Shown here: positions 27,001 through 36,000 of the stretch, piece by piece | Layout of the letters: each line of letters begins with the position of its first letter | Numbering within the stretch: the first letter of the stretch is position 1 | Source: a virus | Taxonomy: Duplodnaviria; Heunggongvirae; Uroviricota; Caudoviricetes | IMG/VR virus record: IMGVR_UViG_2651869782_000025 | Direction: 5' to 3' (one strand) | DNA length: 64,000 nucleotides | Program-made: the position numbers

Positions 27001-30000
27001 CATTTTTTTCGTCCAATGAGGAGGGCATTTGAGTATTTTCAATAAACACGCACACCAGGAACGTCCGTACATCGTCATAGTAGATATTGATGGGACGATA
27101 TCAGAGGCAACGGAAGACAGGCTGCATTTACTTCCACCACCTGGCAAAGGTGCATTAACAGAGCACTGGAACGAGTTTAACCTTGCCTGTGACACTGATG
27201 CTCCCATCACTCCAGTTATTGATATGGTGCGCCAGTTGTCCGGCATTTACACCCTCTGGTTTGTAACCGGGCGCTGTGAGATAGCCAGGGATAAAACACG
27301 AGCCTGGTTGCGTAAGCACGTAACAAATGGGGCTGAGCCTTTGCTATCTATGCGTCCTGCCACCGATGACAGAAATGACGGTCCAGCAAAGATTGATCTC
27401 CTGAAGAAAATTGGTATAAGTAAAATTGCGTTCGCGCTGGAAGATAAGATTGAAGTGGCGCGTGTTTTCAGGAGTCACGGCGTACTTACGTTAATGGTCA
27501 GGGAGTATGAAAATGCACTTCTTCATCAGCAATAATTGCTCTAATAAATCTTGATCTTTAAAGCAGAGAAGATAAAAATAAAAACATGCCGCAAGGGGCG
27601 CGGCATGTATCCAATCAATCACAGGAGCTGAAGATATGAACACGGCATTCAAAATCATTATGGCCGCGATCTATTTCTGGCTGTTCTCTATCACTTTTGG
27701 CAGCATTGTCGCGCATGGGTAAGGGGAGTATATTAGCCATTTGGAACCCCACGGTCTCTTGCGGGTTTAATTAAGAACCCGCAAGAAAAACACGAATTGG
27801 GCTATATTTTTCCGCCTACGTCTTTAAACTTCTCAATAAACGAAACGATTTTCTGGAAAACTGCCTGTTTTTTCGTTTTATATTGCGGATTTAACGGACT
27901 AAGTTTTGGTAATGTTTCGTTTAATTCTGTGCCATTTTCGGTGGCATATTTGCGTTTTAAAGATGTGCGAATATAGCGTTTTGCTGCATCTTCATTGAGA
28001 TTTTCTTCTTTTATCAATGCTTCTGCTTCACGTTGCTGTTCGCGTTGAGCAAACGTAAAGAATGCGTCAATGATGCTGGCTTTGTCCGGTAAATCATCCA
28101 GGTTCGTTTGCTGAATAAAATCGACCACCAGGCCCTCTTTAGCACGGTTCCCTAGGCTTGAACGAATTAAGCGTTTGACCTCTTCGATCATTTCGCCCTT
28201 GCCTTTATTTTGTCTATTGTGTTCGAAAATCAGTCCAAGGATATAATCCAGGTTTATTTCCTGAGACTTCAGCAAATCGACCTCAAAAACTACGTCATCC
28301 CAGTCAGTGGTTGATTTCTCTTTTTTCTCAGCTTCTTTCTCACGGCGCTGCCAGTCGCGAATATCGTTATAGGCAGAACGATAATCCTGAATCTTGCGAT
28401 CAGCAGGGAGACGAATTGTTTGCAATTCAGCGAACTTTTCATCATCCACATAATGTTCTGCTTTGAATTTTTCTACCGCAACAGGATCGCTAAGATCGAT
28501 TTGTTGCAGGGCTTTTAGCGTGGCAAATTCATCATAGTTTTGCAGGATGTTCTCGGCACGCAGGTATTCGCCAAACAGTTTAACGAAGTCTTTCTTCTCT
28601 TTTTCACTTTCAATACTGGCAGGGTCAGGGAACCGTTGTTCCAGTTCTGAAACTACTGTCATGAAGCCGCGTTTAGCTTCACCAGTGGCAGCATCAGTAA
28701 AGCCTTCCATATACTCTGCATAACTCTTTTCTAAAACCACATTTTTGGTATTTTTGTCACCAAACAGCGTTATGGCATCAATGGTTGAGCGTTCCAGATC
28801 CCGGAACGTGACAATATTACCGAAGGTTTTAGTCGCGTCATAAATGCGGTTGGTGCGGGAGAATGCCTGCATCAGGCCGTGAAAACGCAAGTTTTTATCG
28901 ACGAATAGCGTGTTTAATGTTGGAGCATCGAAGCCGGTTAAAAACATCCCCACGACAATTAGCAGATCGATATCCTGATTTTTAACCCGCTGGGCTAAAT
29001 CACGATAGTAGTTCTGAAAACCGTTACTGTCGGTGCTAAAGTTAGTTTTAAAATGGCTGTTATATTCACGAATTGCAGCGTCCAGAAACTCTTTAGCACT
29101 GCTGTCCATTGCGCTGGTATCAAAAGTTTCATCGGAAATTTCACCAATGGCATTTTGTTCTTCATTGGCGGCAAAGGAGAAGATTGTCGCAATACGCAGC
29201 GGTTTATAGGTAGCCGATTTATTAGCGGCTTCTTCTTGTAACCGTTTAAACGTCGCATAATAGGCTTTCGCGGCATCCACGCTGCTCACTGCCAACATAG
29301 CATTAAAACCTTTTGAGCCAGGGAAGGTACGGTGGGTTTTCTGGCGGAAATTATTCAGAATATATTGCGTGATTTCCTGAATACGCATGGGATGAAGAAA
29401 CGCCTGCTGATTTTCAGCCGCACTCAGTTTTTTCTCGTCAGTTTCTGTCTCTAAAGACTTAAACTGTGGCCGCACATCGTTGTAGTCCACCTTGAATTTG
29501 AGCACTTTTTCGTCACGAATCGCATCGGTAATTACATACGAATGCAATTCATGACCAAATACGCTGGCGGTTGTTTCTGAGCCTAAGGCGTTTTCCGGGA
29601 AAATAGGGGTGCCGGTAAAACCAAACTGATAATAGCGTTTGAATTTCTTCTTCAGGTTTTTCTGCGCTTCTCCAAACTGGCTGCGGTGGCATTCATCAAA
29701 TATAAACACCACTTGCTGATTATATACAGGCAGATCGCTTTCTGCTTTCATCAGGTTATTGAGTTTCTGAATAGTAGTGACGATAATTTTGTTATCGTCC
29801 TTATCCAGATTTCGTTTAAGGCCTGCGGTATTTTCCGAGCCGTTGACGCTGTCTGGCGAAAAACGCTGATATTCCTTCATGGTCTGGTAATCGAGGTCTT
29901 TCCTGTCGACCACAAAGAAGACTTTATCAATAAAGTCCAGCTCTGTTGCCAGACGCGCGGCTTTAAAGCTGGTGAGGGTTTTACCAGAACCGGTAGTGTG

Positions 30001-33000: not shown

Positions 33001-36000
33001 AAAACATGTTCATACGCGCCAGGTTATAGGTCGTATGGTTGATTTCCTGACCGAAAAAGCCTTCTTCGATGATATGGTTATCAAACTGTTTTTTCGCCTG
33101 CAACAACAGTGAGCCGGAACCCGCTGCCGGGTCGTAGATTTTGTTAACGTGGGTCTGCCCGTGCATAGCCAGTTGTGCAATCAGCTTGGAGACGTGCTGC
33201 GGTGTAAAGAACTCACCGCCTGACTTACCGGCATTTGCCGCATAGTTAGAAATCAGGAACTCATAGGCATCACCGAACAGGTCAATCTGATGTTCGTTGA
33301 AGTCACCAAGTTTTAACCCTTCAACCCCTTTCAGAACCGCAGCCAGGCGGGCATTTTTATCTTTAACGGTGTTACCCAGGCGGTTACTGGTGGTATCGAA
33401 ATCAGCAAACAAACCTTTGATGTCAGCTTCTGAAGGATAACCGTAAGCAGAACTTTCGATAGAAACGAAGATGCTGTTTAAATCTGCATTCAGTCTGTCA
33501 TTAGTATTTGCTTTCGCAGCTACGTTGCAGAAAAGCTGACTGGGGTAGATGAAGTAGCCTTTAGTTTTGATGGCATCGTCTTTAATGTCATCAGTAATTA
33601 CGCTGTCATCCAGTTTCGCATAACAGATACTGTCATCACCGGCTTCAATATAACTGGAAAAATTTTCGCTGATAAAACGGTAGAAAAGTGCGCCCAGAAC
33701 GTATTGCTTAAAATCCCATCCATCGACCGAACCCCTGACATCGTTAGCAATTTGCCAGATTTGACGATGAAGCTCTGCACGTTGTTGAGTACTTGTCATT
33801 TTCATCCACTTATTTCAGGCTTATGTAATTGGCGGTGATTCTACAGCAACTTGGATGCTTTAGCAGTTCGGACATTAGGCTACGAATGACCTGCCTAGAG
33901 GTTTGTTAAGCCGCAAAGTGCTGGTGCTTTATGCCTGTGAAGTTTATAATCGTGTACACATAACGAGTACACGAGGTGTTTATGCAATCCATTAACTTCC
34001 GTACCGCGCGCGGCAACCTTTCTGAAGTGCTCAACAATGTTGAAGCCGGGGAAGAGGTTGAAATCACCCGCAGAGGCCGTGAGCCAGCAGTAATTGTCAG
34101 CAAGGCTACTTTCGAAGCCTACAAAAAAGCGGCGCTGGATGCTGAATTTGCATCCCTGTTTGACACCCTGGACTCCACCAACAAGGAACTGGTTAACCGA
34201 TAATGAGGCATATATCACCGGAAGAACTTATTGCGCTTCATGATGCGAATATAAGCCGCTACGGCGGCCTGCCGGGAATGTCAGATCCGGGTAGGGCAGA
34301 GGCCATTATCGGGAGAGTTCAGGCCAGAGTTGCCTACGAAGAGATCACCGACCTTTTCGAAGTCTCCGCCACCTACCTGGTGGCTACAGCGAGAGGGCAT
34401 ATATTCAATGATGCCAATAAGCGTACCGCGCTAAACAGTGCGCTGTTATTTCTACGCCGTAACGGGGTGCAGGTATTTGATTCACCTGAACTGGCAGACC
34501 TTACTGTAGGCGCTGCGACTGGCGAGATATCTGTATCTTCTGTCGCCGACACGTTACGTAGATTGTATGGTTCTGCGGAGTAGATTAATGGCACGCAAAT
34601 ACAACAAATTGTCCCGTGAAGCGTTAAAGATGCTTCTTGATGGCGTGAGTCGCCGCAAGGTAAAGCAATACCTGGTTGGTAAGCAAATTGGTGCCAGGAC
34701 CGCTATTGCTGTGTTATGCCGTCAGGAAATGGTTGTGCTTAAACAGAGAATGCCGGGCAGCAGATAAAGCCCAATCAGTGATGAAAGGTGTGATGTGAAA
34801 GCCGTAATTACTCCCTTTGTACAAAAAGAGCTTGGCGTCGCCACATTCAAAGTGGATCAGGAAGTCAGAAAGCTGGTGGAGGCTGGCCGTAAATTTATTA
34901 TGGAGCCGGTGCCGCGTGAGTTAATCGAGCACATGGACGACGGCCTCGTTGTTTCCGAGCAAACTATGGCAACAAATGAGGCGTTGCAGCCGTTTTTTAA
35001 CAGCGATGAACTGTTTCGCCGTATTGGTGGAATTGACGCGCTGGTGGCGTGGTTGCGCAGGAAAGAGGGGCAATGCCAGGCCGCAGATCGGAGCTGGTGT
35101 GACAACCATATTGTCCACGCAGAACGAGACAATAGCGCGGTGTTGTTGTGCTGGCATCACGATAACCATTACCGGATGCGTGGTTTTAATGAGCTGAAAG
35201 AAACGCTGCATAATAATCGCGTTAACTGGATACTGGATGTCGCCCGTCAGGAAATGGGGCTTTCAGATGGCCATGATTTAAGTATTCAGGAACTGTGCTG
35301 GTGGGCTTTCATGCGCGACATGATGCACCTGATGCCGGAAGAAGTCTGCCGTATATCAATAAATAAGATTAAGGCTGCAACGCAGGGTAGCGGACCTCTG
35401 AAAGAGGCGGATATTCGCCCGTATGACGATCGCGCTACAGCATATGTTCAGATGATGGAAGAACGCGCCGCGCCGATGCGTGCAAAAGTATGCTCTGTGG
35501 ATGTTGACTCCGATCCTGGCATGGCGCATTTCAAAATACCAAAACTGCAATCGCTAAAATTACCTGAGTACATGGACTTTGTAGCTTCCCGTCCATGCTG
35601 TGGGTGTGGCGCTGCGGGAGCTGGCGCTCACATTACGCCTTATATTGTTCGTCATAGTCGATTATGCGCGCATGACATTTATGCGATTCCTCTGTGCCAG
35701 TCATGCCAGCGTGACATTGAACGTGACCGTGATAGTTGGGAAAGGACGCACGGCAGGCTGGCGATGCATCAACGATTGTTCTTTGATTACGCGCTTGGAG
35801 TCGGCGCTATCACAAGTTATTCGTCGAGCGTTAGATAAAATTGCTCTAATGTATTGCTATTTCTTTAATCGAGGGTATTATATTCCACGTTGATTAGTTG
35901 ACATGGGCTAATCAGTAGGTGACAGGATGTTACTTAACTGGCAGGGACGCCACTTCATGGAAATAAATCACTCACGAATAACATCGTATGAGATTGCGGA

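Follow-up and report, generated by a model that had tools for sequence, protein, structure and literature searches.

The type IC family is the best-studied plasmid-borne family among type I restriction-modification systems, with EcoR124I and EcoR124II (R124/3) as its prototypes. A tandem tetra-amino-acid repeat (TAEL/LEAT) in the specificity subunit has been named in the literature as characteristic of it. According to reviews, two TAEL copies give an N6 spacer with an interval of 7 bp between the methylated adenines, and three copies give N7 with an interval of 8 bp. Three copies are carried by EcoR124II (GAA N7 RTCG), EcoDXXI (TCA N7 RTTC) and the chromosomal EcoprrI (CCA N7 RTGC), and in EcoR124/EcoDXXI hybrids the spacing shifted exactly as predicted by repeat number. 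In NgoAV of Neisseria gonorrhoeae, which has a type IC-like HsdS, natural variation in the number of LEAT repeats moves the spacer from N6 to N7 in strain methylomes; this system belongs to another genus, has the repeat in another phase, and its hsdS is often truncated and acts as a homodimer. The rule that three TAEL repeats give N7 is based on a few characterised enzymes and on hybrids. With regard to genomic context, R124/3 carries P1-derived DNA 3' of hsdR, and in the annotation of the P1 GenBank record the EcoDXXI hsd locus has the end of humD, phd and doc upstream and pap-side DNA downstream. Tyndall et al. are said to have reported in 1997 that phage P1 DNA flanks the type IC loci of enterobacteria.

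In the present study, we analysed a stretch of 64,000 nucleotides (the window), which is a P1-like phage-plasmid, and found in it a known kind of system, namely another allele of this family. From the sequence, the window very probably carries a functional-looking type IC (EcoR124-family) hsdM-hsdS-hsdR system, located in the conserved hsd slot between pap and phd-doc. The operon and its surroundings comprise the following parts.

27029-27535, plus strand: pap, the P1 HAD/PNKP-type phosphatase gene, left P1 flank (Pfam, P1 record, BLAST against P1)
27584-27608, minus strand: predicted canonical intrinsic terminator with a stem of 10 bp followed by UUUUUAUUUUU, in the orientation that would end hsdR transcripts
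27727-33905, no strand: segment absent from P1, replacing P1 pmgT-humD (P1 84483-87968) between pap and phd (BLAST)
27757-27786, minus strand: hairpin with an 11-bp stem, 16 nt beyond the hsdR stop (dG -25.6 kcal/mol, z -4.96)
27802-30918, minus strand: hsdR, 1038 aa, intact ORF, restriction/translocase subunit
30984-31013, minus strand: promoter-like site within the hsdS-hsdR spacer, TTAACA-18-TATTTT, a candidate for a promoter of hsdR alone (consensus scan, 9/12)
31041-32246, minus strand: hsdS, 401 aa, intact ORF, specificity subunit
32243-33805, minus strand: hsdM, 520 aa, intact ORF, N6-adenine methyltransferase
33806-33905, minus strand: 100-bp island-specific leader 5' of hsdM, presumed hsdM-hsdS promoter region
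33976-34583, plus strand: phd-doc addiction module, right P1 flank (Pfam, P1 record)

The original prediction of a complete hsdM-hsdS-hsdR operon at 27802-33805 was borne out by the three intact minus-strand ORFs, whose coordinates agree, and its placement between a HAD-phosphatase-like gene and phd-doc was recovered by Pfam, which identified pap, phd and doc. The gene order is the one found in EcoR124I and EcoR124II. PADLOC models for the type I restriction endonuclease, methyltransferase and specificity subunits were matched. At the domain level, HsdM contains N6_Mtase (8e-121) and HsdM_N with the motifs DPAAGSG and NPPY, HsdS contains two Methylase_S stretches, and HsdR contains HSDR_N, SWI2_SNF2, T1R_D3(-like) and EcoR124_C together with the nuclease motif D...ELK, the Walker A motif TGSGKT and the DECH box. 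The hsdM stop and the hsdS start overlap by 4 bp, and hsdS is separated from hsdR by 122 bp in which ORF calling found no ORF, whereas the EcoprrI locus contains the anticodon-nuclease gene prrC, reportedly integrated there to judge from the title of Tyndall 1994. HsdM differs from EcoR124 HsdM (7bst_D) at 7 of 519 residues. HsdR matches EcoR124I HsdR (2w00) over its full length (1038 residues, 2279 bits) with about 98.7% identity, a figure that represents about 13 differences in roughly 970 aligned residues shown. These matches to subunits of solved structure, together with the conserved regions of HsdS described below, firmly support the membership in the EcoR124 family that had been proposed.

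The specificity subunit was examined by alignment to EcoR124 HsdS (chain 7bst_A), which it matches over the full length (E = 1e-68), and was divided as follows.

31218-31658, minus strand: C-terminal TRD, residues 197-343, predicted to read the 3' half-site
31659-31832, minus strand: central conserved region, residues 139-196, helix D1 in the coiled coil by which the two TRDs are kept apart
31710-31745, minus strand: perfect array of three 12-bp units (coding strand ACCGCTGAGCTT), which encodes TAELTAELTAEL (HsdS residues 168-179)
31833-32189, minus strand: N-terminal TRD, residues 20-138, predicted to read the 5' half-site

The conserved regions are 79-100% identical to those of EcoR124 (N-terminal 15/19, central 52/58, C-terminal 38/38), and the central region aligns with a single gap, at the additional TAEL of the window protein. 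The family feature, a tandem TAEL repeat in the central region, is therefore present. The array is encoded by the codons AAGCTCAGCGGT three times over, and Tandem Repeats Finder reported it at 31709-31748 with a period of 12, 3.3 copies and 100% matches. The three tandem 12-bp repeats had been announced correctly, but their position, given as 31720-31755, was shifted by 10 bp. A chance match was rejected, because the array is a perfect 36-bp tandem repeat and is conserved across relatives.

Outside the conserved regions the likeness ends. The N-terminal TRD is 18.9% and the C-terminal TRD 18.2% identical to its EcoR124 counterpart, and identity of the system as EcoR124II itself was rejected on these values. 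The window enzyme is thus a different enzyme of the same family, and judged by its TRDs its half-sites are not GAA and RTCG. It also differs from the prototypes in having a P1-like phage-plasmid as its carrier. The idea was originally to be abandoned if the TRDs proved unrelated to type IC, but this is an invalid test, since within the family the TRDs serve as variable modules. The half-sites may likewise differ from those of EcoDXXI and EcoprrI, which by published description resemble the window system in type IC membership and in three TAEL repeats. The statement that TAEL copy number, two versus three, sets the spacer in the EcoR124I/II family agrees with the reviews and with the hybrids. 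By analogy, the three repeats of the window HsdS predict methylated adenines 8 bp apart, in the N7 class. The 8-bp adenine interval is the safer form of this prediction than N7, since the number of Ns is determined by the half-sites as well and both TRDs differ from those of EcoR124. Where the TRDs are unrelated, the adenine interval could hold and the nominal N count still be another.

The nearest relatives of the allele are found both on plasmids and on chromosomes. No identical 401-aa HsdS was found in the protein collection searched. The N-terminal TRD is 100% identical to that of plasmid NZ_CP082122 (L010) and of a chromosomal locus (L001), and the C-terminal TRD is 99.4% identical to those of the P1-like plasmids pE148-2 (L009) and pEA4_97 (L011) and of L001. 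The type IC locus in the chromosomal leuX island of E. coli (e.g. AMSHJX01, HsdS WP_001292892.1) has the same two TRDs and three TAEL repeats, an hsdS with 99.9% nucleotide and 99.75% amino acid identity, and an almost identical hsdM across 32247-33550, whereas its hsdR is about 6% divergent and its flanks are unrelated (tRNA-Leu and nanS side). The mismatch profiles resolve this pattern. Compared with L001, the window has 3 differing sites across 30761-33652, compared with L009 it has 6 differing sites across 27800-31715, and beyond those intervals the divergence is 4-6%. On these profiles the window allele is a mosaic recombinant in which a chromosome-type patch adjoins an hsdR and a C-terminal TRD of plasmid type.

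31716-33542 (minimal; maximal 30761-33652), no strand: chromosome-type recombinant patch spanning the TAEL array and N-terminal TRD together with about 85% of hsdM (mismatch profiles)

We suggest that this patch, which brought in the 3xTAEL array and the N-terminal TRD along with most of hsdM, came from a chromosomal leuX-island type IC locus and took the place of the corresponding part in a pE148-2-like plasmid locus. The significance is modest; the P1 context was described in 1997. Nevertheless, the locus cleanly illustrates, in nature, the two textbook ways in which new type I specificities arise, namely change of TAEL copy number, for which the 12-bp array would slip or cross over unequally, and exchange of a TRD-plus-spacer module between chromosomal island and phage-plasmid, in which homologous recombination in conserved hsd sequences would swap TRDs. 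P1-like phage-plasmids pass between Enterobacteriaceae, and the methylation motif of the window allele would define another barrier or passport for such traffic.

Three other explanations of the locus were considered. The segment might be a recently inserted, self-contained mobile island with terminal hairpins, as was implied when the operon was described as AT-rich and bounded by hairpins. The segment is indeed missing from P1 itself and its GC content is lower than that of the rest of the window (43.2% against 47.1%), which is a modest difference; within it, hsdS has 38.5% and its C-terminal TRD 32.2%. A strong hairpin also adjoins the hsdR end, and is kept in P1-type hsd loci. The palindrome on the right (33950-33974), however, lies outside the island in the P1-derived phd promoter region, and the chromosomal copies share only 27803-33802 with the window, where homology ends on both sides, without the hairpin. 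In BLAST against P1 (NC_005856), homology stops at 27726 and restarts at 33906, and these junctions (27726/27727 and 33905/33906) are the endpoints annotated in the P1 GenBank record for the hsd flanks of EcoDXXI and R124/3. Two phages, phi456 and vB_EcoM-673R5, have the layout pap-hsdR-hsdS-hsdM-phd-doc too, as do many P1-like plasmids. Junctions so widely shared point to one old event and not to a recent insertion. Neither a recombinase nor terminal inverted repeats nor a duplication of the target were seen, and the variation within the locus is accounted for by homologous recombination. A recent mobile island is hence extremely improbable; the locus fills P1's ancestral hsd slot. It was also considered that the operon is carried but inactive, as silent or decaying cargo or as a methylation-only system without a restriction phenotype. 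Relatives give some reason for this, with hsdM frameshifts in four of them (L002, L015, L017, L019), an 8-bp deletion in L020, IS3 insertions in the hsdS of L007, L008 and L023, and an interrupted hsdS in phi456. As hsdM is broken in many close relatives of the window allele, such loci evidently often decay, and promoters are not demonstrable by consensus. In the window, on the other hand, all three ORFs are full length with intact catalytic motifs, HsdM and HsdR share about 98.7% identity with the biochemically active EcoR124 subunits, and the hsdM-hsdS overlap and the hsdM leader are kept in other P1-type loci. We consider inactivity improbable, and a functional-looking system remains the preferred reading.

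The third explanation concerns the repeat array. The expected variation in 12-bp repeat number was found in related genomes, in which TAEL copies range from 1 to 5 (the 5-copy array in L007); three copies are present in about 40% of E. coli type IC hsdS genes. The sister alleles of the leuX island have 1, 2 or 4 repeats, and on one chromosomal haplotype of 6 kb, with 0-2 substitutions, 1, 2, 3 or 4 copies occur, which shows that mutation of the array is far quicker than the substitution of single bases. Such variation, together with the 4-copy and 5-copy arrays on the same IS3-truncated locus, could be read as a phase-variable switch, with high-frequency gain and loss of units within one clone and subpopulations differing in methylation and restriction specificity (phasevarion-like bet-hedging). 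Reviews report change of type IC specificity through unequal crossing-over at the TAEL repeat, and the idea was raised in a phasevarion survey. The window array, however, is short (three 12-bp units) and its evidence comes from a single assembly, and each of the 27 viral contigs with the exact pattern carries 2 or 3 copies. The change would not be on/off, because it keeps the reading frame, and a change of specificity would expose unmodified sites in the cell itself, an argument against tolerance of frequent switching. We regard a within-clone switch as unlikely, and the copy-number polymorphism is one between genomes. A related suggestion, likewise of low probability and put forward tentatively, is that the array acts as a fast "specificity dial", excursions outside 2-3 copies being linked to loss of the system. 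Among 21 loci, hsdM, hsdS and hsdR are all intact in 8 of the 12 with 2-3 copies and in 1 of the 9 with 1, 4 or 5 copies (Fisher p = 0.024, for loci that are non-independent and were sampled non-randomly). Either a change in spacing might create unprotected self-sites and select hsdM or hsdS knock-outs, or the array might drift after selection has been lifted. If the former holds, slippage of the repeat would time and again set off R-M self-toxicity and decay in E. coli populations in nature.

For the functional-looking system, the following mode of action is proposed. HsdM and HsdS would be co-translated through the 4-bp overlap and form an M2S methyltransferase marking a bipartite target, in which each of the two TRDs would contact one half-site. 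The TRDs would be separated by an antiparallel coiled coil, and the three TAEL turns in one of its helices would set the distance between the methylated adenines. HsdR would supply the ATP-driven translocase and the nuclease that cuts unmodified DNA, and the system might serve in defence or in plasmid maintenance. Expression of hsdM and hsdS presumably starts in the leader, which is not P1-homologous and is 98-99% conserved in other P1-like hsd loci; the consensus scan gave no sigma-70 match of at least 9/12 in it. The hsdR gene, after its 122-bp spacer, probably has its own promoter, for which the promoter-like site is a candidate, although such sites are no commoner in the region than in shuffled sequences. 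The hairpin next to the hsdR stop is without a U-run and is thus not a canonical terminator. The predicted canonical terminator further downstream lies within P1-homologous DNA and is found in P1 itself.

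In the present study, the three hsd genes were found on the minus strand as unbroken ORFs, exactly where the original prediction had placed a type I R-M operon:

27802-30918, minus strand: hsdR, intact ORF of 1038 aa with Pfam HSDR_N, SWI2_SNF2, T1R_D3-like and EcoR124_C domains
31041-32246, minus strand: hsdS, intact ORF of 401 aa with two Pfam Methylase_S stretches
32243-33805, minus strand: hsdM, intact ORF of 520 aa with Pfam HsdM_N and N6_Mtase domains

The hsdM stop and hsdS start overlap by 4 bp, and a gap of 122 bp separates hsdS from hsdR. The translated HsdM carries the DPAAGSG and NPPY catalytic motifs, and HsdR the TGSGKT, DECH and D...ELK nuclease motifs. 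By Pfam, the genes next to the operon encode a PNKP-type HAD phosphatase, Phd and Doc. The island had been described as AT-rich; its GC content is indeed below that of the rest of the window (43.2% vs 47.1%), but only mildly, with 38.5% in hsdS and 32.2% in the C-terminal target-recognition domain (TRD).

HsdM differs from EcoR124 HsdM (PDB 7bst) at 7 of 519 residues. HsdR matched EcoR124I HsdR (2w00) along its full 1038 residues (2279 bits), and the displayed part of the alignment contained about 13 substitutions. HsdS and the EcoR124 HsdS chain align over their whole length. Identical residues number 15/19 in the conserved N-terminal part, 52/58 in the central region, whose single gap is one extra TAEL, and 38/38 in the C-terminal part. 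The TRDs are only 18.9% and 18.2% identical to those of EcoR124. Given the likeness of the M and R subunits and of the conserved HsdS regions, together with the divergent TRDs, the system belongs to the type IC family, its M and R subunits being EcoR124-like and its specificity different and uncharacterised; identity as EcoR124II was rejected because of the TRD divergence. The TRDs had no close match among characterised or solved TRDs, and besides EcoR124 the best PDB matches were orphan S subunits. Chain A of 7bst (404 aa) is labelled 'EcoR124II specificity protein', yet it aligned with only two TAEL units; it is the EcoR124I form, a naming quirk when it is taken as the three-repeat reference.

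By analogy with the type IC family, the subunits would form an M2S methyltransferase and an R2M2S restriction complex, in which the N-TRD would read the 5' half-site, the C-TRD the 3' half-site, and the TAEL helix of HsdS would set the target spacing. The hsdR gene would be transcribed apart from hsdM-hsdS, as suggested in the window by one feature, a weak TTAACA-18-TATTTT match at 31013-30984, and hsd transcripts would end at the terminator at 27584-27608. The operon may serve in defence or in plasmid stabilisation alongside phd-doc.

At 31709-31748, Tandem Repeats Finder reported 3.3 copies of a 12-bp unit, matching at 100%. The three predicted TAEL repeats are thus present, but not at 31720-31755: TAELTAELTAEL forms HsdS residues 168-179 and its codons lie at 31710-31745, therefore the predicted position was off by 10 bp. 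GAA N6 RTCG is the target of EcoR124I, with two TAEL repeats, and GAA N7 RTCG that of EcoR124II, with three; EcoDXXI and EcoprrI likewise combine three repeats with N7. EcoR124/EcoDXXI hybrids with altered repeat number change exactly as predicted, and the methylated adenines lie 7 bp apart in two-repeat and 8 bp apart in three-repeat enzymes (PMC3874165; PMC12707154; PMC10030836). The counterpart of TAEL in N. gonorrhoeae NgoAV is a LEAT repeat, whose natural variation in number moves the spacer between N6 and N7 in methylomes (PMC6789123). For the window HsdS, an 8-bp adenine interval (N7 class) is predicted.

The window has pmgS and pap on the left flank and phd, doc, pdcB, lpa and pacA on the right, and is a P1-like phage-plasmid. 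Homology to P1 (NC_005856) stops at 27726 (P1 84482) and restarts at 33906 (P1 87970), so that the pmgT-humD region of P1 is replaced by a 6.2-kb hsd segment. The P1 GenBank record lists matches of P1 84263-84482 to DNA downstream of the EcoDXXI hsd genes (96% identity), of P1 84399-84482 to DNA downstream of R124/3 hsdR (98%), and of P1 87969-88647 to DNA upstream of the EcoDXXI hsd genes (98%); the hsd flanks of EcoDXXI and R124/3 share their P1 endpoints with the junctions of the window. This arrangement of an hsd locus with P1 flanking DNA was reportedly described by Tyndall et al. The pap-hsdR-hsdS-hsdM-phd-doc layout was also found in phages phi456 and vB_EcoM-673R5, in P1-like plasmids of E. 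coli and E. albertii, and in most of 27 IMG/VR contigs. Among 5426 complete E. coli genomes, 1240 had type IC hsdS central regions, which were about evenly divided between chromosomes and plasmids. A literature search on P1-like phage-plasmids with type I hsdS returned nothing relevant. The same type IC locus, with three TAEL, is present in phage phi456 (L004 5639-8076), where a 981-bp ORF annotated 'putative baseplate hub protein' interrupts hsdS and parts its N-terminal 50 codons (7930-8076) from the rest (5642-6421). Type III res/mod genes are also kept by phi456.

The island was also thought to be bounded by hairpins. The candidate structures are as follows:

27584-27608, minus strand: canonical intrinsic terminator in P1-homologous DNA of the pap-pmgT spacer, also in P1 itself
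27757-27786: hairpin 16 nt beyond the hsdR stop, 11-bp stem, dG -25.6 kcal/mol, z -5.0, no U-tail
33950-33974: right-hand palindrome, mapping to the P1 phd promoter region, outside the island

This claim holds only in part. A mobile hairpin-bounded island was rejected, since the junctions are shared and of ancestral origin, the right palindrome forms part of the phd promoter region, and the hairpin next to hsdR, which is kept in P1-type hsd loci, has no U-tail. The 27584-27608 terminator may serve pap as a bidirectional terminator or may be left over from an ancestor that carried hsd. Its P1 counterpart lies at 2185-2208 of the P1 locus (L006), where both adjoining genes, pap and pmgT, read along the plus strand.

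Mismatch profiles showed the locus to be a mosaic, with two stretches of near identity. Compared with the P1-like plasmid pE148-2 (L009), which differs in having two TAEL with different codons and another N-TRD, the window showed 6 differing sites across 27800-31715; compared with the chromosomal leuX-island locus (L001), it showed only 3 across 30761-33652. Outside these intervals, identity falls to 94-96% in each comparison. The simplest reading of these profiles would be that a plasmid-type hsd locus was gene-converted by a chromosomal type IC locus. The two crossovers would fall at 30761-31715, in the shared C-TRD/spacer interval, and at 33543-33652, in hsdM, and the patch would have brought in most of hsdM along with the N-TRD and the three-copy array. 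Among RefSeq chromosomes, an hsdS allele (WP_001292892.1) has 99.75% protein identity to that of the window. No PLSDB plasmid carried both window TRDs, and the window allele was not found on another P1-like backbone in PLSDB plasmids and the DNA searches. The family, its P1 context, the repeat rule and module shuffling have all been published already.

The copy-number distribution was taken from DNA searches and not from the protein-collection search, which returned no three-TAEL relative of the window allele and had no record of the exact protein. BLAST with a four-copy query did not single out four-copy alleles, because overlapping pieces from two-copy alleles are joined and ranked as full coverage. 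Three TAEL copies are not unusual: of 1317 E. coli records with a match, 60 were sampled at even spacing, giving about 25 arrays of three copies and about 28 of two, besides two four-copy cases and one five-copy case, these last being verified. Exact-pattern scans of IMG/VR gave two copies in 19 contigs, three in 8, and none with one or with four or more. The TRD pair of the window also occurs in E. coli chromosomes, in an island adjoining tRNA-Leu; 12 complete genomes had three repeats and two had four (L002), and one diverged copy had two (L003). Also on record with this TRD pair are a 397-aa two-repeat HsdS (P0001, 192 contigs) and a 393-aa one-repeat HsdS (P0004, 7 contigs).

The original prediction had proposed looking for repeat-number variation in related genomes, and 1, 2, 3 and 4 copies were indeed found on a near-identical 6-kb operon. 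When the whole operon was aligned, these loci were 0-2 substitutions apart, indels excepted, which means that the array changes much faster than its surroundings, and has done so repeatedly. This variation is a population-level polymorphism between genomes. The chromosomal copies of the allele lie in the defence-rich tRNA-Leu island, as noted at L001 1474-5165 and L012 11820-15194. Their neighbours include AbiEii/DUF6088, DUF4942 and HNH/ScoMcrA-like genes and a satellite-like block (Icd-like, primase-helicase), with an integrase and KwaA/KwaB also there in some strains.

Repeat number was associated with locus integrity: 8/12 loci with two or three repeats were intact, compared with 1/9 with one, four or five (Fisher p = 0.024), in 21 related loci that were neither randomly sampled nor phylogenetically independent. 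The hsdM was frameshifted or hsdS disrupted by IS3 in 4/4 loci with four or five copies, and hsdM was damaged in 4/5 one-copy loci; among the lesions were IS3 insertions in hsdS, frameshifts in hsdM and an 8-bp deletion. Such unusual numbers could reflect drift once a system was inactivated, or inactivation could have been selected following a change of spacing. The co-occurrence of TAEL numbers outside two to three with disabled systems was noted for related loci L002, L007, L008, L011, L015-L017, L019, L020 and L023. Three leuX-island loci (L015, L017, L019) share a 1-bp deletion at hsdM nt 504, which does not fall in a homopolymer (context GGTGACTTCAAC). This deletion occurs with two and with one TAEL copies, and another locus (L018) has one copy and an intact hsdM, which implies either independent repeat losses or recombination between alleles.

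Other cargo of the window was also compared with P1 and phi456:

45954-47261, plus strand: SIR2_2-domain ORF, 435 aa (Pfam 1.3e-23)
49692-50333: DsbA-like protein, fimbrial cluster
51097-51789: PapD-like chaperone, fimbrial cluster
51782-54199: usher, fimbrial cluster
15651-16814, minus strand: Sulf_transp gene (YeeE-like sulphur transport)

Among PADLOC models, candidate system PDC-S25 matched the SIR2_2 ORF best (6e-27), with ThsA/LmuA-like models next. The ORF sits between mat and lxc, the exact site of the type III res-mod genes (EcoP1I) in P1 and phi456, and in the window element a SIR2-type defence gene seems to have taken the place of type III R-M. The chaperone-usher fimbrial cluster, an unusual cargo for a P1-like element, is within a segment (48002-56248) missing in phi456, which has darB at that position. 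The Sulf_transp gene, inside a region (3406-22392) without counterpart in phi456, may be accessory cargo.
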